From Psammoneis japonica (lineage: Eukaryota): DNA of 20,000 nucleotides. The DNA lies in NCBI GenBank assembly GCA_008632985.1, contig QPGO01000296.1, forward strand, positions 51,731 to 71,730. Reading direction: 5' to 3'. Below the pieces are notes generated by a model. The model worked only from the letters and a program-made list of their open reading frames with translations. It did not search any database and was not told the origin of the DNA. Of this stretch, positions 1 to 20,000 are shown one piece after another. The number at the start of each line of letters is the position of its first letter. The stretch's first letter is position 1. Position numbers and translations under genes: made by a program.

Positions 1-120
1 TCCGATGTTGGTTGGAGGTTCAAGCAGCAACAAATTAATGCAAGACAACCAACCTCTGCCATGGCACCAAATTGAAGCAACGGAGACTCTCTCCCGGGCA
101 CTTGCCAGCATGTTCATGCC

Positions 121-2400
121 TTGCACAAACAGAAATGGTTCCCTGGGCTTGACAAGAATGGTGAAATGCACACTGCTCATGGGGTTGGTCGTGCGAGCAT
201 CAAGAGCCACAAGCCACTTCAAGGTGCAGAGTTGAAGAAACACACGGCAACGTGTTTTCCCCATGGACATGTTCACTGTGTGCCCAATGTTGTTGAGCGA
301 GCTCTGAAACACAAAAAAGAAACAGCTGGCCAGCTGGCATCAACCGGAATGCAACAAGGTCAAAAACAGACCAACAAAAAGATGCAAAAGGCGGCAAAGG
401 AATTCGAGGTCCCTGCCAGTGCAAAAATTTCACTTGTCTTTCCTGATTTCTTGGACAGAGATGACACCTGAAACACTCAGTGTTTCAGGTGTGAGACAAA
501 CAAACTGGTGCTGTTGTTGGGGTCAAGACAATGTGCCCATTCTGCAAATCAAATGCTCATGTGGAGCACAAAGACAGGGCGGGATGCAAGGACAATGTGA
601 GGGCAACTGCAGGCCACAAGGAGAAAATCCCGCCAGTGGGGCCAATTGGATTGTGCAGCAATCAGACTTGTGGTGGACCAGTTGACAATTTGGAGAACCA
701 TGATTGCTGCTCGACGCACTCATTCACAGTCTGCAGTGAAGCCTGTTGGCAACAATGTCCAGAAGAGGTCAGGGAATGGTGTGACACCATTCTAAGAAAA
801 GACGCATCATCCGGAGAAAATGGACAAACTTTGGTGGCAGAGCAATTGTGTTGTGAAGTGCTGCATGACTCAACAATTTTAAAAAATCTGGCAGACAAGA
901 TGGAGGAAGTGCACCAACAGGCTGAGCGCAGGGCGATTGCAGCATGTGTGGCTTTCACTGAATCCCAAGGTGACCCCAACAGCTTGCCTGATTTTGGCAG
1001 TGATGATTGTGACAAGTTGTTTTGACCACCAAGTCACGACACATTTGGCAGTGTGTTTGATGCAGTGTTTGAGATTGTCTTGCCCTTTCTACATCAAGAC
1101 CTCTTCATGAGAACCCCAGGCTGATTTGTTCAATGGGACTCTGCTTTTGACTTTGCAAAGAAAGCAATGAATGACACAGAGTCAGAAGAGGAGTTTAAGA
1201 CAGTTGCCATTGTCTTTGGCGAGCATGGACACATTCTTTCTTGGGCATTTGCTCAAGCCAAGGGAAGCGTCATGTGCCAGCAACTGATGTGCTTCATCAA
1301 GAAGCTGTGAGCATCAAGGACAGATGGAAAATGAAGGCAACCACTGCATGAATGAAGTTGAGCATGGACACAGTGATGTCTGCTGTGAAGGACTTGTTGA
1401 TGCATGGGAACATTGGTTCCTCAAGCTGTGGCCAAAAGCGAAGGTGCCACCAATGAAAGATTTGTGGCATGGGGAAAAAAGGTCACAGACGGCACTTGCG
1501 GAACTTCTCACAAGCTTCGTGTGTCATTCACAAAGGGGCTGGCCCAAGCCTGCCTTGCACATGATGAAGATTCAAAGTGCTCAGTTGTCAAAAAGTTCAA
1601 GGAGGATGAAAATTGAAAGAGTGCACCAGGGGAAACAAGTCCATGTCGACCAAAGTGGCAATGTCGGCTGTGATGGATCAAAAGACGTTTGGGACAAAAG
1701 TGAAGAATTCTGTGCTGGAGCCCTCTGCAATGGCTGCCAATGTTCAAGATGCTTGTGAGAAAATTAAGGTGGAAGACAAGAGACTGTGACAAGAGGCCAA
1801 GGAATGAAGAGACGGACACTTGTCTTGCCTTTTGAAACCGTCGCCAAACGTGAGCCAAGGAACCGAGCTTGAGGTTCAGAATTTCATGCAGCACATTGAA
1901 AAAGGTTGTTTTGCCGACCCTCTTGGTGTTGATGACATTGACACAGAACTCTTGGATGATCCCCATCTGCACTGTGAACAACTGTGAGGAACTTCCCCAG
2001 GCAAAAGTGTGAACAAGTGTGTCAACAGACTTGCGGCGGACACCGCCATTCACGGAGCACCTCGAGTGCACAAGAGACTTTGGCTTTGAGCCACTTGGTT
2101 TGACATTGACAAAGACACCAAGCTGCATCACATTCTTGGAATAGAGAAACCACAAACTGTTGAGTGGTTCCTTCATGAGATGTTGTTGGGAAGGAAACCG
2201 AACCTCTCTGAGTGTTCTGGCACGGCATTCCCCCCAAAGCTTGAGCCTGATTGTGATGAGCCCGTGGGGATTGAGTTCTTGCCACACAAGCAATGGGACC
2301 GCATTGCAAATGATCTCAATGAATTGCAAGCAATCAACCTGTCTGAACAGCAGAAGTCATTGAAGGCAATGTGTGCATCTCAGCCTGCTGCCAGTTCATC
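121..2400 (+). pseudogene. Decayed DDE transposase-like gene with N-terminal Cys-rich region (resembles DUF6729-associated transposases); stops and frameshifts
   Basis: Motifs in expected order across frames: CPFC (~534), WDSAFDFAKK (~1134-1163), FGE[H=Y]GHILSWAF (~1215), [H=Y]SDVCC (~1369), KDLWH (DxxH, ~1456), HIEKGCFADP (~1892), [TGA=R]GTS (~1985). Family assigned from recalled motifs only; ends undefined. Confidence 0.55.
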
Positions 2401-3269
2401 TCCACCTGAGTCGCATCCAAACAATGGTTTGATGATGAGCGTTTCCCACTTGTCACAAGCTGAGTTGCCACAAGGTGAGCTTGCCCTGAATGCTGCTCAA
2501 CAGGAGTCAGCTGCGGTGCTGCCACTGGCTGCATTGCAACAGCATGTGTCGCAATCTGGAGTGGTGTCCCAGAATGTGCTGGCGGTGACTGCTTTGCTGC
2601 AGGCACCATCACGTGTTTTGCAACAACAAGTTCACAGGCATTGTTGTCTCAAGATCAGCAGGTAGCTGGGGTTGCAAAATGTGCTGATCATGGTCAGCTG
2701 CAAAGCATTTGGTCTCGAAATCTTTGTGCAATCAAATGGGTCTCTTTGCTGGACATCTGTCTCAACCCAAGGGAGCCTCTGACATTTTGTCAAGATCAAA
2801 TGTTTTTGCAGACATTGGTTTCTGCATCCAAAGTCACTAGCCTTGGTGAGGAGAAACTAAAAGCTGCAATTGCAGCTGCTTGGAGGGAACAATGCTGTTG
2901 ATTCTTTTCTGGCAATGGCACTGGCTTGGGAGGGCAAAATGTGACTAGAACATGTCACTGTTTTGTTGAAAGAGAAAGGCAATCGACTGCTTCAGATGCA
3001 ACCAGGGCTTTCAAACAGTCAGCAACCCATGATTTCTCACATGGGCAGGCCGCAGAAGCAAATTTGACGAGAAGATGTTAACAAACCATCGCACGCTCAG
3101 TTGGGGGATCTGTTGAGACAATTGCCGGGAAGGAGCATCCGGAGCACCAAACAAGCCCGTGTGGAAGAGTTGCAAAAAAGAGTTTTAGGGAAAGCCATGA
3201 GACTTCAATTTGACACTGTAGATGACACTGCATCAACATCTCTCTCTTCCTCTCTTCTTTCCCTTTTTT

Positions 3270-5240
3270 AAACTTCAGGGGCGCCAGAAGGGCACCCCCC
3301 TTTTAAACTTTGCATCCACAAAAATCCCCAGACAGGGAGCTGCAGGAGTGGGAGGAAAGAAGGGGCACGTGAAACAGCACTCAGGGCATTTGAGAGATGG
3401 AAGTGGAGCAGAAGGAAAGGGGAGGGAGGAGAGAAAGCAAAGGGTGTGGGAAGAAGAGTGATGGACAATGTTGCAACTGACAGTTTAGATGGCCCATTGG
3501 GAGGGGGGGAAGAGCGGTGGGAGCTGCCAAAGCAACCAGAGGAAAGCTGATTCCATGCACAATTGGCAGATGGGAGAAGAGCAGATGGGGAGGCAAGAGC
3601 GCAGGAGAAGGCATTGAAGGAAGCAGAGGAGTGTCACAGGAAGGAGGGGTTGAGCCAAGGGGGTTTGGGCTGGGAGCATGGGGAGGGAGAGGAGGTGCCA
3701 AAGAGGAGCCAGTGGAAGAAGCAGCCAACAAGACCACCCAGGTGATCAATGGTTGAGGGAAGCAGATGTGTTCCACTGGCACTGAGGAATTGGATGGCAA
3801 GAGAGCCATCAGAGGAAGAGGTTGAGGGGCCTCAAAACTTGGACCTTGCACTTGCACAGCGTGCCTCAGTCAAAAGAGAAGATGAGGGGGAGGCAGACCA
3901 GGTGGAGGGCGAGGGGGGGCTTTGGGGACAGTGACGTTGATGGCAATGTGTTGATGCTGAGAAGGAATGGCAAGGGAAGCAGGGGGAGGGATGGCAATTC
4001 CTGCATCAGCTGGACAGAGAATGGGCCAATGCAGCAGAAGGTTTGCAGGTTTGAGGTGGACGTAGGTGGAGGAATGACAGAGCTTGGACAGGGGGGGCAA
4101 GAGTTTGTGCAAGGATGAAAACAGTGTCCCGTGTGCCATTGGAGAGCTTGGACTTGTCATTGCACTTGCACATGAAGGTGTGGTCACCGCAGGCATCAAG
4201 GGAGGTGTGGCCACAGGGACAAGGAGAGTCAATGAGGGAGGAGGGAAGTGCTGGAAGATGCAGCTTGCGTTGGATGGCTGTGGTGCACTCATCAGAGGAG
4301 AGGCGGGAAGAGGCAAATCAGGAGGAGAGGTGGTGAAGCGGCAGGCTGGCAAGGGGCAATGGGAGGGAATGGAGAGCAACTTGGATGGCAGGAGGAGCAT
4401 CAGCAAGAGTGGCATGATGGTGTGTTGTTGGTGGGCATGATGAAGGTGGCAAGCAAGTCCAGGGAGCCTCATTGACTTGACCAAGGTGGGAAGATTTGGA
4501 GCAGCCAATGAGGAATCAGAAGAGAGCACAGAGGCAAAGCAGCGAAAGAGAGTGTGAAGGCACAGGTTGGAGTGGGAGTTGTTCCAGGAAGAGAGAGAGA
4601 GAGAGAGAGAGATGGAAGCAGTGCAGGAGCTCAAGGCTGTCCCCAGAAGGGAGCTGTGCACCGTGACAAGTGAAGCGGAAGGAGAGCAGAAGAGAGATGA
4701 GGAAGGAGGGGCTGGCGGCAGCAGCAGGAACACACAGGCCCAAGCCACACCAACGGAGGCAGGGAGAAAGGCAATGGCCAGGGAGTGGGGAGGTGGAGAA
4801 TCAGAGTGGGCAGAGGCGCAGTGAAGGAAGTGATGGATGAGGTCCAGAGGAATGGGTCAGGCGGGTTGTCAGGGTCAAAGTTGCAGTGGAAGTCGGTCCA
4901 AAGGAGGTGGGCAGAAGAAGGCACAAAGCAGTGTTTGAAAAGTTGAGCTTGAGTTTGCTTGTCACGTGGGCAAGGCAGGAGACCGTCAACCTCAGCAGAG
5001 AGGGAGGAAGAGACATCAGAGAGGAAGAGGAGTTTTGGCAAAAGCACAGGAGCCAAGAGGCTGTCCGAGGAAGTGGACAACCAGAAGTGAGCTCGGGGTT
5101 GTAGGAGGGGTCAACAGAAGGGTTCAGGAAGGCAAGAGCATTGCACAGGGAGGAGGCATTAGATTGGGAGAGAGAAGAAAGTGGGCTGGTGCCGCTGATG
5201 GAAATGAGGATCTTGTTGTCAGGGTGTCTTCATGGGCATG
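3270..5240 (-). mobile_element. 5'-truncated, degenerate CRE-like non-LTR retrotransposon (end of RT, CCHC knuckle, restriction-like endonuclease)
   Basis: Minus-strand translation gives FLGQPLGS (~5050-5075), LFKHCFVPSSAHLL, AIQRKL[H]LP (~4255-4280), CPCGHTSLDA[C=Y]GDHTFMCK...SNG.RD (~4125-4222), L[C=R]PADAGI...IAINVTVP (~3925-4020), LLPSTIDHLGGL (~3730-3765), PSQWAI (~3490). Boundaries approximate. Confidence 0.75.
4590..4611 (+). repeat. (AG)n microsatellite inside the LINE remnant
   Basis: About 11 AG units seen directly. Confidence 0.9.
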
Positions 5241-5390
5241 AGCACCCGGAACCAAGATGGCCCAAAAAGCCAAGCCAATTTTTGAGTTGACATGTGGCTA
5301 ATCTTCACCATGAAATCTGGGACGGTTTGCCACTTTCAAACAGATGACAAAGATGTAGCATGGTGGCTTTTGCAACAATGCAAATGAACA

Positions 5391-5667
5391 ATGCTTTGCT
5401 GGAGGCTGGTTTTGACAGTCTGGATGGCATGGCTGATGCCCTGCTTGATCATTCCGGTGGCTTCAAAGATGCAACGACAGGCTCTGCGAGAACTGGGCCT
5501 TGAAAATGGCTCTTTCACACAGCAAGAGCTCAAGAAAGCCTGCCGTGCACGAAGCCTTGAAACACATCCAGACAAGGGCGGCTCACACGAAGCCTTCATT
5601 TGTGTTGCCCTAGCTTGCAAATTGCTCTCTGGTTCAGGCACTCACAAGTTCCAAAGCAACGAGCGTC
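5391..5667 (+). pseudogene. J-domain (DnaJ/Hsp40-type) gene, 5' half, interrupted by Copia insertion
   Basis: Hydrophobic N-terminus, then ALRELGL...ELKKA[C=Y]RARSLETHPDKGGSHEAFI.VALA[C=Y]KLL with the HPD motif; frame runs into the TSD/LTR at 5663-5668. Confidence 0.85.
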
Positions 5668-6891
5668 TGTGGGAAAGTGGCCTGAATTCTGGGATTCGTC
5701 TGCACTTTCAGTGATTAAAAGCTGCAATTGCAATGCAACAATCAATCAGCAACTTTGCACCAAAAGTTGAGAGGTGACAATCGACACGTTAGAAAGACCA
5801 TGAGCAGTTTTTATGAGCAGATTCAGCTGCCATCTAAAAGAAACGCGAAGTTGGGCTTGGTCTGCAGGTGAACCAAGCCGGATCGGATCGCCGGATCGAC
5901 TCCTTCACAACCCATTAAAATGTTAGTCCATCGAGTCAAAAAAGTCGATCCGGGGCCTTTGTGGGACTGATCCGCCATCTCGGATCGGATGTCGTGTCGA
6001 ATTTGGAAGATTCCGTGCCGTCATCATGACAATGGCGCAACATCACCCGATTGTGACACAGGGCGGCATGAGATTCAGCCATGAGGGCACAGAACTTCCT
6101 CAGCATTGCAGCCTGAGTCTTTCCATGCTTGAAATGGAGATGAAAAGGTCGCGTGGCTGTGAAACAGCTTGTCAAACCGATGATGCCATAAAGATTTGTT
6201 GGAGAAACATTGAACAAGCAAAACAACAAGTGTTCATTGTGCAACTCGAAATTTCAATGCAAAAACATGGTGTCAGTTTCTCAACTGCAAAAGTGATGGC
6301 TTTTTCTTCCTTGTTGTTGGTGCAAACACTGAGTGACAATGATGCTCAATGATGTGGTCAAGCAAGCATGTAAAGCAGCAACAAAAGTGCAGTTCTGTCA
6401 TCATGTTGTCTTGTCATGACAAGATGTGAAGCATCATGGCCACACTTGTTGTTGTTCGCTTTGTCAGTGCTTTGTTGTTCTTGGGAGTTTGGAATCTTGA
6501 AACTTGTGTCATTTTGCGACTCATCAAAATGTCGAATCCGATCTGTGATCCAATCCGATTCCACCTGTCGACTGACAGAACTCTGACGTGATCCGATCCA
6601 TTGATCCGACCCGGCACGGTTCACCTGTAGACTGAGCCTTAGACACGCGCGAATCTGAGAACAAACATCGCATTCGTGACTCGGGTTCCGCGGGATTCGA
6701 GACTGAGTGTCACACACGGATTTGAATCATGGATCTGAATCAACCAATCAGGTTGAGTTTTCTTGATTCTGACTGCTGTTGCTTGTGGGGAGGAATTGCC
6801 CTTCATGCTCATCAATTCATGACCAAAGGACATGACTCGTGGAGGTTCGATGTTGTTGCACAAAACATGCAAATGTGGATGTGTTGTCACA
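5668..6891 (-). repeat. 3' LTR (436 bp net, interrupted by a MITE at 5854-6638)
   Basis: 5668-5853 plus 6642-6891 align to 12842-13267 with ~24 substitutions and 4 indels (manual alignment); starts TGTGGGAAAG, ends GTTGTCACA. Confidence 0.93.
5854..6638. mobile_element. Non-autonomous PIF/Harbinger-like MITE (785 bp) nested in the 3' LTR
   Basis: 36-bp imperfect TIRs 5854-5889 / 6603-6638 (GGCTtgGTCTgCAGGTGAACC.. vs GGCTcaGTCTaCAGGTGAACC..), flanks TTG (5851-5853) and TTA (6639-6641), subterminal GATCC/GGATC repeats; absent from the other LTR (empty site ~13028). Confidence 0.85.
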
Positions 6892-6899
6892 CTCCCTTC
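6892..6899 (-). other. Polypurine tract of the Copia element
   Basis: Minus strand reads GAAGGGAG immediately before the LTR start TGTGACAAC. Confidence 0.8.
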
Positions 6900-6934
6900 A
6901 ACAACATTGGGTGGAATGATGACTCAAAAACGTC

Positions 6935-8968
6935 TCACCACTTAAGAAGTGACTTCCTGTGCTTGACGAAGAGGTTTTGTGGCAGAGGTTTGGCGAAAAT
7001 GTCTGCAATCTGACTCGCCGCATCAATTGGTGGGATTGACATGAGACCCTTGCGAACATGATCTTTAAAGTGGTGGAGCATGAGGTTGAAGTGCTTTGTC
7101 CGAGGATGCATCTCAGGCAACCTGGCAATCTCCAGTGCTCCAGAATTGTCTTCAAATGCCTTGCAGTGCATGACAGGTGTCTTGGAAGGGACATTGTGAC
7201 CATGACTCATGAGTTCTTGAACAAGGTTCATGATCGGAATGGCACTGCGAAGACTTTCCAAAAGAGTGACAAATTCAGCCTCGGCAGTGCTGAGAGTGAT
7301 CAGGGTCTGCAGCTTGAATGTCCAGACAATGGGACATCCGGCACAAGCAATGACAAACCCAGTTCTTGATTTGGAAGTGCCGATGTCATCAGGTGCAGTC
7401 AGTTTGTTCCAATTGCCCGCGAAGTCCGCGTCAGCATGAACTTCAAGGGACTTGTCTGTTGAGGGCTGTGGAATGACACCTTCATTTCTGGTTTCGCAAA
7501 GGTGCTTGCAGAGCCACAGTGCGGCCTCACCATGAGAAACCTTGGGATCAGATGAAAAACGTGCGATCTGATGCACTGCGCAAGCGATGTCTGGGCGAGT
7601 GCTCTTCTCCAGAAAATTGAGCTTGCCGACAATGGAGCGGTGGTGAAAGCTCCCTTTGAAGCTTGGCTCACTCATGTGCCTGTGGAGAATCTTGGAGGAT
7701 GGAGCCGGTGTTGACTTGTTGGGTGCTCTTTCAGGTGAGTTCGCCATCTCCAGCATCTGATTGACAAGATGCGGTTGCACAAGTTTCATTCTGCCATCAG
7801 GCAGTGTTTCAACGTTGATGCCGAGACAATCATCCAGAGCACCCTGATCATCAACATCAAAATTTGCATCTCTGACATCTTGTGTGGCTTTGACAACTGC
7901 AGTGTTGTCTGGCAATGCAAAGATGCCATCATCCACACAACACACAAAAATCACATTGTCACGGTGACAGAGGCACTCGTCGACTGCCGATTGCATGAAG
8001 CCAATCCGCAGCAAGCCATCATGTGAGTGTTCTTGCCATGCCCTGCCTGCTTGTTTCTGTCCATGTAAATTCTTCAGCAATTTCAGAACATGAGTCTTGC
8101 CATTGCCACATTTTCTTTCAACTCCTGCAGGCAAATCCACACACATGTCATGTTCGGCATCAGCCTGTGGATGTGCCAATGCGAAGTCAACTTGGCGTGT
8201 GTGCCACTTCTTGAGGATGGCTGTGATCAACACAAGTCGGATGGTGAACCAGAAGACGATGGAAGAGCAGGTCTGGAAGCAGTTGACTGCATGCTCTTGC
8301 TTTCCACCATGCACATTGAGTCGGGACTTCCATTTGTAAATGGCACAAGTTTTGATGTCTCTCTTGCACTTCATTGACCATGTGGAGGGAAGAATGTCAA
8401 CATCATCAGGTGCGTCTTCACGTGGCATGAGTGCCCAATGCTTCTTCTCAACATGATCATTGACCTCTTTGATGCAGGCCTTGACAAACTCGTCTCGGTC
8501 AGGTTCGCACATGGCTTGATCAAAGCACACGAATGAAGCAGGTGAGTCCATGTTGTCCTGTAACTTGCAATCATCTTCATGCATGGCATCACAACACTCC
8601 TCTGCCTCTGCTGCACAGGAGACAATGCCTTGAGCCCTCTGGATCTGGCTTTCGCGCATCCTTTCGGTCGGGCGTCGTTGTTGGCTGGACCCACTGACAC
8701 TGGGCTGACCCATGGCATGCTGTGGCTCAGGAGGCAATTCGTCATCATCTGGAGGTACACACAGCTCCTCTTCTTCAGGTTGTGATGTGTCAGCATCAAA
8801 AGAGTCATCCACAGTGGGATCAGAATGCTGCAGCTGAGGTGGGACATCCGGACCCGGCTCAGGCAGTTCTGGTGGAGCAACAGGTTGCTCCCTTGTTCCT
8901 TTTGATCTCCCAAAGATGTTGAGTGACTGTTTGGTTTTGCTTGCTTGAAGCCTGTGATGCCTTGCCAT
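6935..8968 (-). pseudogene. pol: Copia pol: reverse transcriptase + RNase H (open frame, catalytic motif mutated)
   Basis: WSMKCKR...KWKSRLNVHG, QVDFALA, LLKNL[H]GQKQAG, V[CC]VDD, D[C]LGI, RPDIA[C]AV, [H]ADADFAG, SRTG, LSTAEAE, EDNSGA, RTKH, ADIFAKPL. Confidence 0.95.
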
Positions 8969-9000
8969 TGTGCAAATGTTGATGGATTGCCAGCAGAAGG

Positions 9001-9960
9001 TCAGACCGTCTCAAAAAAGTTGTCAAACTGTGCGTGGAACTGCGGCGATGCGAGTCCGGTTTGTAAATTCAAAACCAAGGCAACTGATCCTGCGTGTCTT
9101 GTTGAAGGTCCCAGATTGATTCCCAACCTTGCTCTTGGATCCCATTTAGGTGCTCCACCTCCTCCTTGCAACCAGTTGTGCAAAGCGTAGACTGGGCATC
9201 CAAAAGCATGGTGCTGCTTGAGGTCAGGCTGAACCTTGACCGACGTGAAACGTTCCAAAGGAGAGGAACCATCCTCATGGTCAGGCAAGTGGTTCCTGAT
9301 CTTGTTCGAGTTTCTTAAAGCGCTTGGCCACAAATTTGTCTCTGTTGCAGATGGCCATCTAACCTTTGCATGTAAGAGCTGTTTTCTTGCTTGCTCTTGC
9401 AGGTCCCATGTTCGTTTTTCCGTGATGCCATTTTGAAAGTGAGCATTGACGCCACAGTGCGAGATTGTCTGTTGTTGTTTCTCCACGTCTTGGATGAATG
9501 CATTGTCAGCAAATCTCCCGTTGTTGGCATGATGGTGTTTGATGCAAACATGGACTCGTCGTGCAAAAGCCTTGAAGGAATGTTTGGCCTCAAGTGTCTC
9601 GTCCGAGGTGAGTCCCCTCTGTGAGTGTGTGCATCCCAATCCGCTACAGTGATCAACAAATGTTGTTGCTGCTCAATGCCTTTGCTTCGCAGGTCTCCCT
9701 TTGAGTTGAGGGATCAGTCCAGGAGTCAGACTTTCAAGCTGGTCAACCGATGCAGCCTCTCCAGGCAAGGTTGCCAAGTGGATGTGTCTGTTCCACTTGG
9801 ACTTGGAGCACCATGGTCGTTTTGTCATGGCACCATGCAGGCAGCCGGCGCACTTTGGGTTGTGCACCTTTGTAAGGCGTCTCGGCAGGATGCCTGGGGT
9901 GGCCATGAGCTTGATCATTTTGAATGACATGTGGCCTGGGCGGTGATGCCAACACAACAA
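9001..9960 (-). pseudogene. pol: Copia pol: GAG-pre-integrase HHCC finger and integrase core, frameshifted
   Basis: WHHRPGH...CAGC, SVDQL, HHANNGRF (from YHADNGRF), HFQNGITEKR, LWP, FGCPVYAL, KWDPRARLGINLG, SPQFHAQFD. Confidence 0.92.
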
Positions 9961-10379
9961 TTCACCTTGGTTGTCAGCAGCGGCTAAGGCATCATCATCT
10001 GGTGTGATGTTGATGGGTTCCGGTGGGTCCTCCTGAACCTCCGGTGTCACAAGATCCATCAGGTTCTCCTCGTCAGAGTCAGAGCAACTCGCTTCATCAG
10101 TTGGCTTGAATGACTGAGGTGCACTCACATCAGTGTGGTTGTGTGCGTCTTGCATCTCGGAAGGACGTGTCTTGGAAGGACTTCTGAAGATGTCTTGTTC
10201 AATTGCAGTCTCAGCATCGTTTGCAATGCTTTCGTTGTCAGGTGGCATGACATGAGCCTGACAGGCCATGTGCTCAACATTTTCGATGTGAGTCTGTTGT
10301 TCAACAGTGGCTGCAAAGGTCCGGCATTTGTTGGAACCAGGTGCGGAGTGCATCTTGGCGACATTGGAGTCATTGGACC

Positions 10380-10770
10380 ATGGAATCAAGCGATGGCACT
10401 TTCTCTGATCCCACACTGGCATGAGTCCATCGTCTCTAGTCCAGGACACGGTTCCGTGAGGCTCAGGTGTGTGGTTGCCGGCTTGTTGACTCCATTGTTG
10501 GGGGCAAAGGAGACAGTGAGGCAAGTCCAGTGCGAGCAGTGCATCTCGAATCTTGATGTTGTGCACTCATCCCATGTCATCCTCAATTGGCCACTGTGCT
10601 GTTCCTTCTCCCTTGGCAGGCAAACAACCTTTGACACCAAGCACCACCTCACTCATCTTTCAAACAGGACCAATGAAGTGTGTCTCGTTGTTCGACATGG
10701 TGCAGGAAGAGTGGGAGTCAACACCCATCATGAATGAGTCCGAGTTGCAAGTGGGTTGCATCTGCTGAGG
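10380..10770 (-). pseudogene. pol: Copia pol: aspartic protease region, frameshifted
   Basis: SDSFMMGVDSHSSCTMSN...FIG followed by CLLCPQQWSQQ, at the expected position between gag and integrase. Confidence 0.7.
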
Positions 10771-11168
10771 ACGGCATGGAGTGGTGGCACTGCAAGCGGA
10801 GACCATCTTGTAGCGCACAAGGACGTAGTGAGCCTTCTTGTTGGCCACACTCTGGAGCAGTGACCTGGCTGCGTTGACGTGTGATGCTGTGCGCAGCACC
10901 TCGTCGTTGGCCGTTGCTGGCAAGTCTGAACTGGTGGTGTGCTCATGTCAACTGGGATGTGTGAAAGAATCCACTCACCCAGTGTCATCACAGCATCACA
11001 CAGCAACTTACACTGGCTTGAAGGAAGGGACAGCATCACGAATGAGAGGATGACCCAAATCGGGGCCGCAAACTTCATGACGCCAGAGACTGATGTCAGG
11101 AGCAGTGACGCAACAGCGGCCATCTGTGGGGACAGGAGGAGCGTCATCAGAGCTGATTTGATGGCTGG

Positions 11169-12771
11169 TCACTCTTGATCCACTTCGTTTGGAATGGCAG
11201 AAATGGCACTAGCGAAGGCGACCTTCTTGTCGGATGTCTCGTTGGAGGATGAAAGTTGTTGCTTGCGGAGTCTGCACCCAAACTTTCCCGGATCATCAGG
11301 CAAATGAATGACCCAAGCCATGTGGCAAGTGCACCAGTGACAGTTGCAATTGTTGACATGCTTGTGAAAGTGCTGATGTCCATTGACTGTCTTCTTAGGT
11401 GCACCATCCTCAGGCGGAACTTTCTTCCAGGCTTCATCAGCCTTCCACTTCTGGCGTGGAGCAGTCTTGGTCTTCCTTGACTTTGTGCTTCTCTCCTTTC
11501 CTGAACCTGCCTTGGCCTTCAGAGCCTTGGACAGCTGAAGGTTCTGGTCCTTGATTGAGCCCACCTCAGCAGTGAGTGCAACGATCTGCTCTTCAGCTGG
11601 TGAGAGTGCTCCCCACTTCTCATCTTGCTTGAGGTTAGTGTGCTTGTTGAGCACCAGTGACATGATTTGTGTTGGCATGAAATTCTCACCATTGTTGCAC
11701 CTGTCCTTGTGTGGGGTGATGCATTTGACAAATGCTTCGTCAGCAGCAGCGGCGCATCCTTTAAAAAGATTCACAATGAGGTCGTCGCACTGCTCGCCCC
11801 TTGCTGGCAGCCCATCAACGTTGAGCTTGGCACACTTGTTGAACTCTTCCATGTCCAAGTTGACAGCTGCCATGTGTGCATCCAGGCTTGAAAGGTTCTC
11901 ACAGAAGTGGTTCGTGGTTGAACGGGTGTCGACGACAGCTTTCTGAGTGAGCAGCTTGAAGAACAGTGTGCCAATTTGGTTTCCATTGATCGTGCACAAA
12001 TCAATCTCATCAAGTGTCCTGTCCCTTGCTTCTTCTGTCAAGGACTGAGAGATGGCTTCAGCCATTTGCACATTGTTCTGTGCTTGCCATGTTGGAAGAT
12101 CGGCAAAAGTGGTGGCATGAGCTCTCACGTCCTGAAGAGCAAGCAATCCACACTCGGAAATAAGATCTCAAGGAGCTCCATTCATGTCGGGAATGGCAAG
12201 CATGTCTCCTGTCCCTGTTTTCCATCCTGCTTTGGCAGCTCGTTGACTGAGCATCTCACAAAAGCGTTTGAGCCCTTCAGAGTCTCCGTTAAACTCGTGT
12301 GGCAGTGGACAAGTGGCAGCGTTCTCCAGAGCTTTGGGCCTTGCGACATGCCGCAGTCAATGAAATCATTGGGGCGGCGTTGACCTGGGGTCAAAGCAAA
12401 GATTGGCAGTGGACAAACTGGCAGAGCACTGCCTGGTCCTCCTGGTGGTGGAGCACCACCTCCTCCACCTGGTGGAGGAGCGCCACCTCCTCCTCTCCAG
12501 GTGCAACTGCTGGGTTGACAGGAGGGTTCACCGGAGCAGCTGGAGGAATGATGGGAGGCACAGCAGCAGCTGGAGTGGCTGCAGATGGAGCAGCTGCTGC
12601 AGGAGCAGCAGCAGGAGGAGCTGCTGGAGCAGGAGCAGCAGCAACAGCAGAAGCTGCAGGAGCAGGTGCAGCAGCAGGGGCTGCAGCAGCGGCAGCTGCC
12701 GGAGCAGCAGCTGGAGCCGGAACTGGTGCGGCAGCAGCTTGGGTGGTCGCAGTTCGTGTCTGTACGACCAT
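11169..12771 (-). pseudogene. gag: Copia gag, frameshifted, with Ala/Pro/Gly-rich N-terminus
   Basis: ATG at 12771 (MVVQTRTATTQAAAAP), FALTPG...FID[C=Y], GTLFFKLL...VDTRST, NLFKG[C=Y], WKKVPP...HWC..H..W..H knuckle-like motif; 325-aa ORF 11169-12146. Confidence 0.85.
12430..12740 (-). repeat. Low-complexity GCA/GCT/CCT-rich coding tract with a duplicated ~26-bp unit
   Basis: Poly-Ala/Pro tract; CCTGGTGGwGGAGCrCCACCTCCTCC at ~12441 and ~12468. Confidence 0.8.
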
Positions 12772-12841
12772 TGCAGGGATTAAAGCACAATCGAACAGTG
12801 GAGTCGATTTCACTTGTCTTGCAGTTTTCGCAGAGGAAGCG

Positions 12842-13267
12842 TGTGGGAAAGTGGCCGGAATTCTGGGATTCGTCTGCACTTTCGGTGGTTAAAAGCTGCA
12901 GTTGCAATGCAACAATCAATCAGCAACTTTATTGCACCAAAAGTTGAGAGGTGATAATCGATACGTTAGAAAGATTATGAGCAGTTTTTATGAGCAGATG
13001 CAGCTGCCATCTCAAAGAAACGCGAAGATAGACACGCGCGAATCATCTGAGAATAAACATCGCATTCGTGACTCGGGTTCCGCGGGATTCGAGACTGAGC
13101 ATCGAACACACGGATTCGAATCATGGATCTGAATCAACCAATCAGATTGAGTTTTCTTGATTCTGACTGCTGTCACTTGTGGGGAGGAATTGCCCTTCAC
13201 ACTCATCAATTCATGACCAAAGGACGTAACTCGTGGAGGTTCGATGTTGTTGTATAAAACATGCACA
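12842..13267 (-). repeat. 5' LTR (426 bp)
   Basis: TGTGGGAAAG...ATGCACA followed by TSD GCGTC; lacks 18 bp present near the outer-equivalent end of the other LTR. Confidence 0.93.
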
Positions 13268-13680
13268 GCGTCATCACGATCGTACAAGTCGAGATCGTGA
13301 TAATCAAGAGCAACGTGGAGAACGACAAGAGAGGCAACAATGGCAACAACAAAAGCAGAATAATGAGGAATGTTCGAAGAAGCAGCAGGCATGCTCTTTG
13401 ATGACATGTTTGAAGACTTTTTTCCGGAAACTATGCTGACGTTTTCCTGGACAAGATCTTTCCACAAAAAAACTTGACGCGAAACCACGGGTTTGCCAAA
13501 TGCTGTCTTCGCTGGGCTGTTGATCGCCTTACAGACAAGGCTTTGTGTCTGTTGGAAGAAAGCGAAGTGTCCATTCACATTGATGGCCGCACCTGCTTTT
13601 CAGCATCTAGTTTTAGAGAGTGGCGAGACCGCGTTCGTCAGAGGAGACAGAAAAAGCAACAGCATCATTCTGAATTCTAG
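13268..13680 (+). pseudogene. J-domain gene, 3' half
   Basis: Removing the element and one TSD gives in-frame ..SNER|HHDRTSRDRDNQEQ..; after apparent frameshifts it reads MFEEAAGMLFDDMFEDFF..NYADVFLDKIFP..RQRRQKK, stop at 13680. Confidence 0.65.
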
Positions 13681-14622
13681 AATAATGCTACAACATTGTC
13701 AGCAAATGACGAAGAGTGCATGCATCCCACCATGATGGCCCGCATTGTTGTTTCTCCAATGTTTGTGCAGTTGAAAATGTAGCGTTTGTCGAGAGCACCT
13801 GGCGAACTTCCATTTGTCGACTAGTCCGGTTTGCGATGGACAGCCGGAAAGCCAGTAAAACAGGGTGAATGGGTTATCAGCAGCAAGACCAAACTAGTCA
13901 CCCATGTGTTTCGAAACGGGGAATGCTCACGCTTCAAAAACAAAGCGGTAGCCTGGTCCTGTGTTCAGGGACAACACGGATGCATCATCTTCCTTGACCT
14001 TGGTGTGGAGTAAGGATTGTCCAAAGCATATGTTGGCGGACCAATTTTGAAAGGAAAGCTGTCGACTGAACAACGTTAATCTCGCCGCATCATACACTGC
14101 AAATAATAGAGGTCTAACTTACTACGTGCAACCATTGCTGTCAATAGTGCTCCGAGTAGAGCTCACTTCCTTGACTGGCGAATGCATTTAGACCAGCAGG
14201 ATTGACGAAACGAACAAACGACACAACGACTCGAAGAATTATTGTCGGTTGACTGACGAAGCCGACCATACCGGAAGCCATACAAGGCCCAACGTCATTT
14301 TCTTACCAGAAGACCCGCGTGCAAAAACCTCTTTTGTGCCAGCCAAGAAACTCACGAAGCCCTCGCGGCTAGGCACAACTCGAGGTCTCCTAGGAACGGA
14401 GACGGAAGGAATTGCATGTGGTGGATGGATAGATTCGAGCAAATAAAGTAGCAAACGGAAAGACGATTCAAAACAAAGTTTTTGTGCGAAATGGTAAATT
14501 GTGGCAGCATGGCAAGCAGCATAATACATTCAGCACTAGCAGCAATGAACATCTAGAATAATTATGTTGAGTCATACAACCAAAGTTTACTGTTTTCGAA
14601 AAACGAAGCTACAGCGACTATT

Positions 14623-15637
14623 TCACATTCCTGGAACAAATCGATCAGGTCGCTTTCGTTTTCTTCCGGTGTTCCTGTAGCTAAACAGATCTGGCTTTTC
14701 ACAAAGCAAGGAGTAAACAATGCCCACTCTGGACATGTCTGTATTACGCCCCCCACTTTGGCCAAGACATGTGCCCAGAGAGCTGGATTAACAGTGTCCT
14801 GTTTCAAAAGTTGTCGCCCATGCGCTTCGATCACGGCTTCATGACCCTCATCGACAGCGGCGTCCAGCGGTGTTTCTCCATCCACATCTTTTGCGTCAAT
14901 GTCAGCTCCGCGTTCCAACAGGAGTCTCGCCATGCTTTCGCTACCTGACGTGCCTGCTGCATCATGCAAATTTGTAAGCCCCACCTTGTCAATCTCGATG
15001 ACTCGCGCCCCTCCATTCTCCAAGAGAACTCGCGCTGTGTTTTCCCTTCCGGCACTTGAAGCAAAATGAAGAGCTGTGCCACCCACTGTGATTGACTTCA
15101 AATCTACGTCGGCACCATTCTGCAGTAGTAAAAAACACACACAATCGTGCCCATAATACGAAGCTAAATGAAACGGCGTCAAACCACCGTTTCCAGCTTT
15201 GTCATTGACTGCCGCGCCGTGCGACAGAAGCACACGAGCTGTGGATGCACGCCCGCGAAGGCACGCCAAGTGCAAGAGTGTTACTCCAAGTGACCGATCC
15301 ATCACGCGTGCTCCAGCATCCAGCAGGAGTTGCACTTTGCATCGCGATTGCTTACAGCCGCAGAACCGACAACATCAAAAAGGATGGGGCTTGGACCACC
15401 ACCATTCATTCGGTTCACAAGCATGTTCGGATCGGCGCCGCGCAAAAGTGCACGTCGAACTGTGCTGCCGTCACCCAAAACGTTTGATTCTAGGATTTGA
15501 TCCAAATCCATGTCTAAAGTGACACGTTGTGATGAGAAGTGAATGGAATGGAGCCGCCGTCGACCCTGTGCTGCTTGTTGCTCTTTGCTCACGGCTGACG
15601 CCGCTGCCAGCGCTGCGACGCTGTTGTCACTTGTCAC
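14623..15637 (-). pseudogene. Ankyrin-repeat protein gene with two apparent frameshifts (pseudogene or indel errors)
   Basis: GVTLLHLAC..LLSHGAAVN, GLTPFHLAS..LLQNGADVD, GGTALHFAS, GLTNLHDAA..LLERGADIDAKDVDGETPL. N-terminal LLRGADPN lies in another frame (shift ~15335); tail VYSLLCEKPDL..RKRKR lies in another frame after a C6 run (~14750). Confidence 0.85.
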
Positions 15638-15669
15638 GCTAGCTCCGTGTGCGTTTTGGTTGTTCGAGG

Positions 15670-16513
15670 CACAGGCTCAGATACACTACTAGGCAGGACA
15701 GTAGAAAATCAACATTTACAATAATTAAGAAATTTTTATATTTAGCAAATGACGTGATTTTCAAGGATATACTTCCGGGTTTTTGGCGATTTCTGCCGGG
15801 TTCCTTTCTGTTTCGTGTACCGATTTTGGGTGTTTCACCACGGCGAAGCACGACGACAATGATGGTCGAAATACGCTGCAATGCAAGTGGGGCCGTCGAG
15901 CGCCGACCGTGGGAATCTCATTAAGTTGGTATTATAGCACACGTTTCAGGTGTCGGCGCTCGACGGCCCCACTTGCGTTATGATGAAATTATCGACGGCA
16001 TGTTGTCATGGTCGATTTTTTTTTATTCTGCCGCGCCGGGAAATCACAATCTCTCCGTAGGATTCTACGCTCTTTTTGTACGGAGCCTTCGACGACCGAC
16101 CTATCGTCATGTCGTTCGCAGACAGCGGCATAAAATAGAATGCATGCCTGGTCTGACAATTTATACATCCTCGTTGGGGCTGTCCACATTTCCCGATTGC
16201 AGCTCCACTGTGTTAAATTAGTGCAGAGCGATCGTATGGTTGCGACAACAAGAACCACAAGCAGCAACAGTAACACAAAAACGTTCTGATTTCTGAAACA
16301 AATTCGGTGGCGCTCATCATGTGCGCTCTGGTCGAAATTTCCAACGGAAGCTTCTCCGTAGATTTCTACCTGACTGGTGTCCGTTGGTTAAATTTAGTAT
16401 ATGAAACTGAAGGTCCTATTAGTTATGTTCATGTATAATAAGCATTTCAGATCCGTGCTTTCCAAGTAGTCGGAGTATACATTGTCCTGCCTAGTAGTAT
16501 ATCTGAGCCTGTG
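15670..16513. mobile_element. Non-autonomous TIR element (844 bp), 7-bp TSD, possibly P superfamily
   Basis: 31-bp TIRs 15670-15700 / 16483-16513 (CACAGGCTCAGATAyACTACTAGGCAGGACA, 30/31 identical); TTCGAGG at 15663-15669 and 16514-16520; no transposase ORF. Confidence 0.88.
15883..15976. repeat. Perfect 25-bp inverted repeat with 44-nt spacer
   Basis: GCAAGTGGGGCCGTCGAGCGCCGAC (15883-15907) is the exact reverse complement of 15952-15976. Confidence 0.95.
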
Positions 16514-19439
16514 TTCGAGGTTCGCGGCGTTCACTCCCGGCTTGGGAGGTCTGTAATTGCGCGGCGTTGTGCTGGGTGCGAAGTAGTCGAGTGAGTCGTC
16601 GCAACAAACCGACCAACAGAGCACAAGCGCCTCTGTCAAATTGTGCTTCAAACTGGAGCCCTTGCCGCACTCATCCCCACTTGCAGCACCCAGCACCCAG
16701 AGACATGACGCAGCATTGTTTTCTGTCATTCCAGAGCTGCAACAACATTTGTGAAAACCACCCACGGCTTCTTGGATTCAGCAGCTGCAGTGCTTTTGGC
16801 TGAACATTCTTCAGCAAGCGGGCCAGCGTGTGCTGCGCTCACATCTTCGCTGGAGTCAACATGTGCGCCCGCTTCTCCCGCCAACACAAGGGGAGCTTGT
16901 GCAATGCACTTTCCATCCAAATTTTTACCTTGCTCTTTAATGACACTGTTGAGTTGACTGAGTGATTTTGCATCTGAAATTTTGGGTGCTCGTTTGACTG
17001 CTGCTTCTTCTGCTGCTGTGCAGCTGTCGTCTGTCATTTGCGCCAGTGTCATGTTCTGACATGCACTTTGCAACCTTCACCAACAAAAGCTTGGCAAAAC
17101 TTTTGACATTGTGTGTTGTGCTGTTTTGGAGAGTGCAGCATGCAGGAAACAATGCCTTGCAATGGCTCATGATGTCTTTCTTGAGGCAAGTCTGACCTCA
17201 GTGCTGGGGGTGCAATTTGCAGCCATGAGAACAAACAACCACTTGTTGAGGGATGTGCTCATCAAGGGGTCAAAGGCAGAAATCAGTGTGGTTGCTCAGC
17301 CCAGATGTTGTTGCTGCCAAGATGCATCTGCAGCTTGAATCTTGCATCCTGGCAATTCGCGTCTCTGCAGATGCAGGCAAAATGATCAGTCATGGTTGAC
17401 ACAGTCGGCCGGACAAGAAGTGCATGTCTTTTCTCTTCTGTGGTGCACACTTTGTGTTGCAACCATGTCAGAGCATGTTGTTTGATTTTTTTGTTTTTCC
17501 TCTCAAACTTGGCCTGTCAAAGGGGTTGCCCGTGTTGATTGTCAACACTGGATTTTCATCTGTCTGCAAATGTTGGGTGAACCTTCCAATCATCTCGAAG
17601 GCACCAAGCTCCCTTCAGTTGCCACGTGCATGGGTGCATCACATCCTGTGCAAAGTCCCCCATGTCTGCGCGCTGGGTGCACCCTGCCTGACCACCCCAC
17701 AGCAGCTTGCAACTGCATGACAACATTGCTTCCGCCTTTCCATTGGTGTGGACCAAGGAACACCCAAAACATGTGTTGGCAGAAGAGTTCCCAGTGGAAA
17801 ACATTGACTGAGCAAGGACCATCTCACAATGGATGACTGTGACATGCTGAAATGGATCTCATGACCATGTCTGGTGCATGAAATTTGACCAATGGAGATT
17901 GGCATAACAAGCAAACTGCCAGCATTCCACTGCCCAATTGACTGGAGAACTTCTGACAAGAAACAGAAACAGACTGCCCCACACTGTGCTGCACTGCACT
18001 CACAGTGGGCCAACTCATCATGACAACCACCAAATGCCCACAAAAACTCTCAAAATCAAATCTGTTCTGATTGGCCTGATTTGAATGCTGATGCGATCTC
18101 CCTTCTTGATCTCTGGCACCTCGTGAAAGAAACACTTGAGTTGAGAACTTCTGCCTTTGACACATTCATTGGGGATCTCAGAAATGGGCCACTGGTTTTT
18201 GTTTAGAAACAGCAAACATCTGCAATCTCCGCTGGTTGCTGGGATGTTTCCAATCACAATGCACGGCATTGGATCATCAGCAAAAGAAGCTGTAGATGCC
18301 TCCAATGCAGAGCAGTCATTTGAATTTTCAAAAATGTGAAACAGCGGCTCCGATGCCTGGTCTCCCACTGCTCTGGCGAAAGACAAAGAATGGGATGTTT
18401 TGGCATCAAGACAATGTTGATCAATGTAGAGATCCAAAGAGAGCACAAGGAGGGGCAAGTTCTGAGTTGGAAGCTTGCAAAATGCCATGGGAAGGGCACC
18501 ATGTGACACCAGGTGGGACTCCTTGCTTCCATTGTTTCCCACTGAGATGCAGGAATTGTTTTTGAGGAACACAGCATCATTGGGTGAGCCACAGTCGACA
18601 GCATCTGAGTCATGTTCCCAGTCATTGAACAACAGTTTGCAGCAAATGCAACTGCTGACTTGCAATGGATGCACACCTTGCATTTCAACCTGCAAGTGCA
18701 CAGATTGTGCCTCTGACTTGACCCACCCTTTGTCTGGCTTAAAACTCGAGGCAATCCGGCCAAGCACAAGATGGTTTGCACCTTGGTCATTGCTGGATTC
18801 AATCATTGCCCCACCCTTTGCAAGCTTTGGGTCAAAGGTTGTGGGCAGAAAGTCAGTGTTGCTCTTGTGGCACAGTTCAAGGAATTTGGATGGATCCCCT
18901 CACAACTCTCCACAAGCACGGAAATTTGCGTGCCATGTTTGTTTGGCATTCTCACCTCCCCATGCTCTGTGCAAAGCATGTCACCCTTTCATGACGAGAC
19001 GACCTTGGCTGCGGAAGCAGTGCACTGCAGAAAATGACTTCCACCATGTTCATTTTCACTGATTTGGTGGTCTTCTTTGTTGCGTGGATCAAATGTGCCA
19101 CATCAGAGAATCGTGTGTGTCCAGTTGTTGTGTGGCTTGGCATTGTGATCATTCACTTTGAGTGCAAATCTGCACAACTTTGCAAGTTCGTCATGACACT
19201 TTTCTGCATGCCCAGAGCCAGGAGACAGAGTTTTGCCTGCAATGGCTGCTGGTCAAAAGAAGACAAGGTGAGTTCTGCTTTCTTGAACTTCCATTTCCCA
19301 TGGAATTGACTTTTCTTTAGATTTTGATTTCCACCATGATGTTCCCAGTTCCATCACTGTTGAGTGCCAGTGGCCGCAAATGAGGCACACTGATCAGACT
19401 GAAAGGTGACAAGCTCTTGACACAGCCCTGACTGCACGA

Positions 19440-19832
19440 GCCATGAGCAAACCTCTGGAACCAAGAAACAATCTGCTTCCACCTCCAATCAATGGGTTCT
19501 CACTTTGAATCTGCAATTTCTTGCAAAAACACCAAACCACATTGGAGATGAGAGAGCAAGTCACAAAAGGCCACGGGGTTGTGGCTCAGGCATGTGTGAT
19601 TTTCTTCATCCATGGGATTCAAGGGACTCCAAGCATCCTTGAGCATGCAGCAAATGGGTGAGCTCTCATCAAACTTTTCCAAGATGGATTTTGGGTTTGC
19701 GTGTTTGCCGCCAATGTTGAGATGCAAAATTGGAGCTTGGGGATGAGAATCTGCAGCAGCTTTTAGTTTCTTGTTCTTGGAGCTCAAAATGCTGCCAGCA
19801 GGCTCTCCTTCTCCTTTGCCCATCGGCACCAT
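19440..19832 (-). pseudogene. BTB/POZ (KCTD/T1-type) domain gene, hypermutated and frameshifted
   Basis: ILHLNIGGK..KSILEKF..MLKDAW..DEENHT[C]LSHNPVAF.DLLS[H]LQ[C]G, then in a shifted frame LEVEAD[C=Y]FLVP; probably continues below 19440. Confidence 0.7.
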
Positions 19833-20000
19833 GTCAGTGCAACATCAAATGTCAGCAGTGTCCTTCTGACTTCTGATTGCAGAGAAAGAACAGAGAAAGA
19901 GTGATGAGTGATGAGAGACCACTGCCAAAGCCACTCAGCATTGAACATTTGAAGGGAGTGGGGGGCGCATTTGCAGAAGTCAATTGTCAGCTGCTGCTGC

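Follow-up and report, generated by a model that had tools for sequence, protein, structure and literature searches.

Mutation accumulation in Bigelowiella natans has revealed a hypermutation of integrated viral DNA that converts A:T to G:C at TpA only (Mettrop et al., bioRxiv 10.64898/2026.01.13.699255). That preprint places 231 of 302 nuclear point mutations in integrated giant-virus (NCLDV) and virophage regions. A>G or T>C changes account for 230 of these, every one of them on TpA; the rate was ∼1000-fold over background and the effect appeared in 11 of 15 lines. The same text describes 124 TpA-poor, CpA+TpG-rich clusters with a high share of unannotated genes, reports that low-TpA coding sequences are enriched for reverse transcriptase (RT), endonuclease-RT, and DDE domains, and proposes, without proof, an ADAT2-like DNA adenine deaminase (bioRxiv 10.64898/2026.01.13.699255). 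Here we describe a 20,000-nt stretch of contig QPGO01000296.1 (hereafter the window, meaning the whole stretch that was analyzed) in which three blocks, one of them the body of a complete Ty1/Copia retrotransposon, have lost nearly all TA dinucleotides and are rich in TG and CA. An initial annotation of the window had called this pattern a "reverse RIP" (RIP, repeat-induced point mutation). A process of this kind is real and very recently described, being already present in the 2026 preprint; within the library searched, no other report of TA>TG/CA hypermutation was found.

As far as the available preprint text goes, the window resembles B. natans in several ways (bioRxiv 10.64898/2026.01.13.699255). 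In both, only TpA is affected, to TpG and CpA, in delimited regions that lie beside normal DNA, and nearly all changes are A:T>G:C. In the window this is seen in the Copia protein, where 14 of 18 conserved Tyr columns now carry Cys or His, and in TA-derived transitions at 13 of the 23 differing positions between the two long terminal repeats (LTRs). The content of TpA-poor regions is mostly unannotatable in both, and copy number does not seem to be the trigger: the NCLDV region is single copy there, and positions 1–3335 are at single-copy depth here. Confinement to foreign or mobile DNA holds here for the Copia element and for a terminal-inverted-repeat (TIR) element inserted in it; the other two blocks are without identifiable origin. 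The two differ in extent, in that the giant-virus and virophage inserts of B. natans are still at 3.3 and 9.2% TpA, whereas the process is close to saturated here, in the LTR retrotransposon and the TIR element as well as in unannotated DNA (0.27–0.45% residual TA in the TA-poor blocks). The terms "trinucleotide," "diatom," and "other species" are absent from the preprint text available, and "methylation" occurs in it only in general remarks. By this wording, the flank hierarchy, the CpG link, the LTR-pair test, and a second organism are not found there. In the window we see an LTR retrotransposon and a TIR element brought close to saturation, a sharp edge common with CpG loss, and the flank hierarchy.

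RIP in ascomycete fungi is alike in producing dinucleotide-specific transitions on mobile DNA in situ, in being saturating, in disabling coding capacity, and in leaving sharp compositional domains. It differs in direction: RIP changes CpA to TpA and so creates TA and stop codons, whereas in the window TA is destroyed and TAA and TAG vanish. The duplication requirement of RIP is also not apparent here. The enzymology of RIP is that of a cytosine methyltransferase-like protein and, to our knowledge, all mutational genome defences described so far in eukaryotes act on cytosine, either as RIP or as APOBEC on retroelements. If one dinucleotide is erased from invading DNA by attack on adenine or thymine, the chemistry would differ from both. 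The ADAR and ADAT/TadA enzymes share with the process in the window that A is read as G and that a 5' U/T is preferred, the U33-A34 of tRNAs being a "UA" context. They differ in acting on RNA, whereas the substrate here is integrated DNA, and the order of 3' neighbors found here differs from that of ADAR.

TpA loss in discrete domains

Outside the Copia element, the window is laid out as follows (o/e, observed/expected).

1–5660, unstranded, TA-poor block 1, TA o/e 0.07, without recognizable protein family.
13273–16599, unstranded, TA-normal and CpG-normal block, carries the ankyrin-repeat gene.
14565–15374, minus strand, ankyrin-repeat open frame, Ank_2 E 4.9e-30.
16600–20000, unstranded, TA-poor block 3, TA o/e 0.04, without recognizable protein family.

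Dinucleotide counting gave 23 TA in 1–5660 (o/e 0.07; CG o/e 0.27), 27 in 6892–12841 (o/e 0.08), and 9 in 16620–20000 (o/e 0.04; CG o/e 0.25), vs. 30 in the TA-normal DNA of 14000–14600 (o/e 0.68). These four numbers are identical to the by-eye counts of the initial annotation, and its remark that TG and CA are abundant agrees with o/e values of 1.57–1.80 for TG and CA in the TA-poor blocks. When the TA-poor blocks were pooled (15,031 nt), 59 TA were present compared to 923 ± 23 in 200 mononucleotide shuffles. Strand-symmetrised rho values in the poor blocks, in the normal block, and in 77 related Copia loci taken from metagenome contigs were 0.06, 0.54, and 0.62 for TA, 1.67, 1.25, and 1.22 for CA+TG, 0.34, 1.06, and 0.79 for CG, and 1.17, 1.20, and 1.07 for AA/TT, respectively. 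Apart from CG, strong departures are limited to TA and CA/TG, and AA is unchanged. Fungal RIP was tried as a candidate and rejected, since a TA rho of 0.06 with a CA/TG rho of 1.67 runs in the opposite direction.

Saturation reaches ∼90% inside discrete domains and the neighboring gene is spared. The right edge is abrupt: 16401–16600 contains 15 TA at a CG o/e of 1.15, and 16601–16800 contains no TA at a CG o/e of 0.38, the levels of TA and CG both shifting at ∼16600. Within the normal block, TA o/e is 0.43 in 13273–15559 and 0.78 in 15560–16617, with CG o/e at ∼1.0–1.3. The ankyrin gene is the sole recognizable host-type gene in the window and sits in this spared block, so the earlier statement that host-type genes all show the loss is not supported.

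The TA that remain are not a random sample with respect to their neighbors. Among 118 both-strand readings in the poor blocks, the 3' neighbor of A was A in 54, G in 37, C in 24, and T in 3, whereas 242 both-strand readings in the normal block gave A 60, G 63, C 60, and T 59 (chi-square p 1.6e-7 for poor vs. normal). Hardly any TAT is left, and TAA is the best survivor. ATAN tetramers are almost absent from the poor blocks; TTAA and CTAA survive.

CpG loss follows a different rule. The flanks of residual CG are even (A 162, C 167, G 164, T 151; both-strand totals, summed by hand), and the TIR element is low in TA but has lost little CG (5 TA vs. 56 expected and 33 CG vs. 43 expected in 5851–6639). 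Two separate processes, TA loss and CpG loss, therefore operate within common domain boundaries. Deamination of 5-methylcytosine (5mC), i.e., CpG decay, is comparable to the TA process in its domains, which coincide here (CG rho 0.34), and in its products, TG/CA; it differs in that it cannot remove TA, and in leaving residual CG without flank bias where residual TA are biased. The initial annotation was correct that C-to-T processes cannot remove TA, but it did not mention the CpG depletion of the TA-poor blocks, and CpG decay in these domains does contribute to the TG/CA excess. On a rough mass balance, about half of that excess comes from TA loss and half from CG loss.

We also compared the blocks by summed contig depth, which is a weak measure of copy number. 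Positions 1–3335 lie at ∼31.6, the single-copy level, yet are TA-poor; parts of the ankyrin block lie at 3–9x the single-copy depth, yet are unmutated. By this measure, copy number alone does not seem to be the trigger.

Copia element: direction and timing of the changes

Positions 5668–13267 contain the best-annotated victim, a complete minus-strand Ty1/Copia element flanked by a perfect 5-bp target duplication, GCGTC. Its assignment to Ty1/Copia follows from an RVT_2 RT, an integrase upstream of the RT, TG..CA LTRs, and the 5-bp duplication. The features of the element, and of the TIR element that it contains, are listed below.

5663–5667, unstranded, left copy of the target-site duplication GCGTC, repeated at 13268–13272.
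5668–6873, minus strand, 3' LTR (LTR-A) of the TG...CA type, split by the TIR element, aligns to 12842–13267.
5854–6638, unstranded, 785-bp non-coding TIR element inserted in LTR-A, similar to a miniature inverted-repeat transposable element (MITE), with 45-nt arms that are 80% complementary.
6938–9010, minus strand, Copia pol, RT/RNase H open frame, RVT_2 E 1.3e-22.
9004–10566, minus strand, Copia integrase region in two open frames, gag-pre-integrase PF13976 E 1.2e-8 and SH3-like PF25597 E 3.8e-5.
11172–12167, minus strand, putative gag open frame of 332 aa, named by its position upstream of the integrase region only.
12842–13267, minus strand, 5' LTR (LTR-B) at the edge of the TA-normal block, 12 TA and 22 CG.
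13268–13272, unstranded, right copy of the target-site duplication, matches 5663–5667.

For Copia pol, 314 related proteins were found; those with names belong to diatom elements (39–47% identity), and among the unnamed ones identity reaches 61%. The putative gag frame was without Pfam match. Between it and the 5' LTR, positions 12437–12711 carry 27-nt, 33-nt, and AGC-trinucleotide tandem repeats, which yield Ala/Ser/Cys-rich frames in several phases.

The direction of change was read from the pol protein at columns where Tyr is present in at least 70% of nine relatives with normal tyrosine content. Only 1 of 18 such Tyr has been kept; the others are replaced by Cys (9), His (5), Phe (2), and Leu (1), where Cys corresponds to TAY>TGY and His to TAY>CAY. 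Other residues are retained when compared to the same nine relatives: Phe 13/13, His 16/16, Gln 14/14, and Trp 8/9. Tyr makes up 0.1% of the window protein vs. 3.4–4.8% of the relatives, the catalytic YVDD motif reads CVDD, and an eight-sequence alignment places Cys or His at 16 of 21 Tyr columns. Ile and Val are eroded too, in the manner that TA loss in ATA and GTA and at T|A codon junctions would produce, and 10 of 16 first-position A>G replacements are preceded by T. The polarised events on the coding strand, 23 A>G vs. 20 T>C, are balanced, indicating that both strands were hit. The direction of change is TA to TG or CA. Among the 43 polarised sites, 16 strand runs were found vs. 22.4 expected (P 0.03), and the hits in LTR-A fall in same-strand groups; such strand coordination is suggestive, a lead that we did not use as evidence.

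An element integrates with two identical LTRs, both copied from a single template, so that differences between them date from afterward. Over 415 aligned positions, LTR-A carries TG or CA at seven sites where LTR-B still has TA, and at three further sites LTR-A has TG and LTR-B has CA, i.e., two independent hits on an ancestral TA. The remaining differences are 3 CpG losses in LTR-A, 4 other transitions, and 3 transversions. Over the same 415 nt LTR-A retains 5 TA and LTR-B 12. The process is position-dependent: LTR-A, inside the domain, is strongly mutated, and LTR-B, beside the normal block, much less.

The TIR element provides a second marker of timing. Its 3-bp duplication reads TTG at 5851–5853 and TTA at 6639–6641, and its ends differ as TG/CA and TG/TA. 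TTA-type 3-bp duplications are typical of PIF/Harbinger-derived MITEs. Summed contig depth over the element is 720–930 vs. ∼31 for unique DNA, making it the highest-copy sequence of the window. Taken together, the LTR discordances and the mutated TIR duplication indicate that the process acted on integrated chromosomal DNA after insertion, so that neither RT error nor RNA editing can be the main cause, in agreement with what the initial annotation had argued. Its wider statement, that unrelated elements (transposase, LINE, Copia, MITE) are all affected, stands for the Copia and the MITE-like TIR element; the "transposase" and the "LINE" were not confirmed, with no Pfam family at the curated cut-off in 201 open reading frames (ORFs) outside the Copia body.

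Low TA is not a trait of the Copia family. None of the 77 related loci has a TA o/e below 0.3 (0/77; range 0.31–0.98, vs. 0.08 for the window element). The three lowest (L059, L035, and L057; 0.31–0.40) have TG/CA at 1.32–1.40 and near-normal CG, and may be partly hypermutated copies in environmental protists. Three of 120 related proteins contain less than 1.5% Tyr: P0002 (NCBI), which lies on a 47-kb contig, and P0095 and P0098 (JGI), Copia polyproteins that are 41–57% identical to that of the window. They have Cys or His in place of Tyr at 14 (P0002), 10 (P0095), and 11 (P0098) of 21 conserved columns, and the signature thus recurs in other deposited records.

Mechanism and rival explanations

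It is highly probable that the TA-poor blocks result from in situ TpA hypermutation of integrated DNA, TA being changed to TG/CA. In agreement with the initial annotation, the LTR pair, the target-site duplication, the TIR element, and the Tyr>Cys/His changes place TA to TG/CA conversion on chromosomal DNA, on both strands, in delimited domains rich in transposable elements (TEs). The blocks would be silenced mobile or foreign DNA, hypermutated at the DNA level in the chromosome, with A:T pairs of 5'-TpA-3' turned to G:C by the same process as in B. natans. Domains of silent chromatin would be exposed to an enzyme that makes the A of 5'-TA-3' pair as G on either strand, and replication would then fix A:T>G:C. 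Because the product is no longer a substrate, each TA is hit once and CG is not formed. The likeliest agent among those considered is a DNA-directed adenine deaminase, perhaps of the ADAT2/TadA type, that would turn A into hypoxanthine, which is read as G; we stop just short of calling it probable. The domains are probably chromatin-marked, 5mC-methylated heterochromatin, since CpG decay in the same domains suggests 5mC methylation there. Elements would be inactivated through the change of catalytic Tyr to Cys or His and the destruction of TA-containing signals such as TATA and AATAAA, and by this route the hypermutation may work as a genome defence.

A rate check was made with figures borrowed from the preprint and assumed valid for the organism of the window. 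The 211 mutations over 6,169 TpA and 3,132 line-generations in B. natans (bioRxiv 10.64898/2026.01.13.699255) correspond to ∼1.1e-5 per TpA per generation, or 90% TA loss in ∼2e5 generations. At the B. natans background rate of 3.5e-10 (same source), the 7 non-TA/non-CG LTR differences over 415 nt give an insertion age of ∼2.4e7 generations. On these figures the element body should be saturated. Of at least 15 TA in LTR-B only ∼3 are gone, which would mean that this LTR was shielded roughly thousand-fold and that the domain edge is stable, at or within LTR-B.

The data would look the same if thymine rather than adenine were the target. TA is self-complementary, T>C and A>G at TpA give identical data, and the residual context reads equally well as ATA best and TTA worst. 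Under such a scheme the thymine of TpA would be modified in silenced chromatin by an enzyme (e.g., oxidized to 5-hydroxymethyluracil, 5hmU, or taken beyond it) and mispair or be misrepaired to C; thymine-modifying TET/JBP enzymes do occur in protists. We consider it unlikely, because 5hmU pairs with A and we know of no near-quantitative T>C arising from 5hmU. The only experimental study also proposed adenine deamination and not T chemistry, though without proof (bioRxiv 10.64898/2026.01.13.699255). Error-prone repair synthesis of the Pol-eta type, recruited to heterochromatin, had been named as a candidate in the initial annotation and we find it very improbable. TA>TG does belong to the WA>WG spectrum of such repair, but AA/TT is not depleted in the poor blocks (rho 1.17 vs. 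1.20 and 1.07), which contradicts a WA>WG process, and ∼90% saturation of a single dinucleotide is hard to achieve by polymerase error. RNA-level A-to-I editing of retrotransposon RNA by an ADAR-like enzyme, fixed by reverse transcription, would suit a retrotransposon as best-annotated victim and the preference of ADAR for a 5' U (bioRxiv 10.64898/2026.01.13.699255). However, the LTRs from one template disagree at 10 sites derived from TA (TG vs. CA at 3), a DNA-type TIR element has a mutated duplication copy beside it, and non-retroelement DNA is equally TA-depleted. TAG, the preferred triplet of ADAR, is moreover among the survivors, and RNA editing is scarcely credible as the source of the pattern.

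A native composition or selection, with elements coming from or evolved as TA-avoiding sequence, could draw on the mild TA under-representation that is general (the normal block has a rho of 0.54, related loci one of 0.62). The replacement of conserved and catalytic Tyr by Cys/His, the lack of any related locus below 0.3 TA o/e (0/77), and the divergence of the LTRs at TA sites after insertion make this practically negligible. As for a sequencing or assembly artefact, such as systematic miscalls at a modified base, contigs of run X1 (∼31x) differ from positions 1–3818 by 1 letter and 5 gaps, and match 3802–5591, 7600–8099, 8702–11540, and 11812–12855 with 0 differences; none of the listed long run pieces lies over the third TA-poor block. 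The platform is not on record and the runs found may be the assembly's own sample. Even so, the covered TA-poor stretches are matched almost exactly, per-strand miscalls at palindromic TA should also have created CG, which is depleted instead, and three NCBI/JGI database proteins show the same Tyr>Cys/His. The process was furthermore seen de novo in Illumina data of B. natans (bioRxiv 10.64898/2026.01.13.699255). An artefact is accordingly most improbable.

Several observations weigh against hypermutation by a DNA adenine deaminase in silenced mobile DNA as set out above. An enzyme, chromatin mark, or small RNA cannot be seen in a 20-kb window, and the matching signature is the sole basis for equating the process with that of B. 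natans. Recognizable TE or viral proteins are missing from two of the three TA-poor blocks, whose origin is only presumed to be mobile or foreign. The TIR element could have arrived already TA-poor, the ankyrin parts at 3–9x depth escape mutation, and run X1, if it is the assembly's own sample, is not an independent confirmation. The 3'-neighbor order T>C>G>A is unlike the preferences of ADAR and ADAT, ADAR favoring a 3' G and the tRNA substrates of ADAT having no U at position 35. T-directed chemistry, finally, gives the same strand-symmetric outcome.

If the lineage of the window is not B. natans, in situ TpA hypermutation would here show its first sign in a second lineage; if it is B. natans, the window would be one of the clusters already reported, with proof added at the level of single elements. 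We put forward tentatively, as somewhat less than probable, the broader proposal that the window comes from another lineage, and that TpA-erasing hypermutation is a wider RIP-like defence on retrotransposons and DNA transposons in CpG-methylated silent chromatin, with the order TAT > TAC > TAG > TAA as the fingerprint of a DNA adenine deaminase. The search for the enzyme is constrained to an activity on integrated double-stranded DNA, on both strands, with single hits and a defined flank preference, which is domain-limited with an edge coinciding with CpG decay and apparently indifferent to copy number. A natural DNA enzyme converting the A of TA would interest the base-editing field. For the retrotransposon, the outcome is that catalytic Tyr and TAA/TAG stops vanish, and the spurious long frames can mislead gene callers.

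Other features of the window

The effect on open frames is visible in the stop triplets of the poor blocks, 28 TAA and 25 TAG vs. 415 TGA. With so few TAA/TAG in TA-free DNA, and TGA as the sole stop, the long open frames of 1–5660 and 16600–20000 are probably spurious. Outside the Copia body, 81 ORFs of at least 70 aa and 120 ORFs of 38–69 aa were searched against Pfam, and none of these 201 ORFs (≥38 aa) matched a family at the curated cut-off. Below the cut-off, a CxC1/KDZ hint was found at 19787–19999 (E 0.025), and DUF2805 at 13414–13677 was slightly below its own cut-off. ORF 18021–18899 gave no homologues in a word-based search, ORF 1511–2356 gave one weak, repetitive match in an exhaustive phmmer search, and neither had relatives in scans of viral contigs. 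The Rfam search returned no matches and the tRNA search no genes; among RNA datasets, no entries were listed for 13000–16600.

A homologue search with the ankyrin ORF returned generic matches only (31–47% identity). The ankyrin frame at 14675–15341, a gene family or element in multiple copies, escapes hypermutation: its summed contig depth is ∼279, ∼9x single-copy, and its TA content is normal. Immediately outside LTR-B, the ∼700 bp of 13273–14000 have a TA o/e of 0.14–0.42, below the rest of the normal block, with normal CG. This may reflect a limited spread past the element or just coding-sequence composition. At the other end of the normal block, a run contig joins 15559 straight to 16618, omitting 1058 bp. 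The omitted segment, 15560–16617, is the most TA- and CG-rich part of the window (TA o/e 0.78, CG 1.28) and adjoins TA-poor block 3. A recent insertion that has not been mutated, or copies that differ by an indel, may account for it. In TA-poor block 1, positions 3300–5200 are purine-rich on the plus strand, with GC skew up to +0.46 and AT skew of ∼+0.3, and the minus-strand frames of this tract read as Pro/Ser/Leu-rich low-complexity protein.

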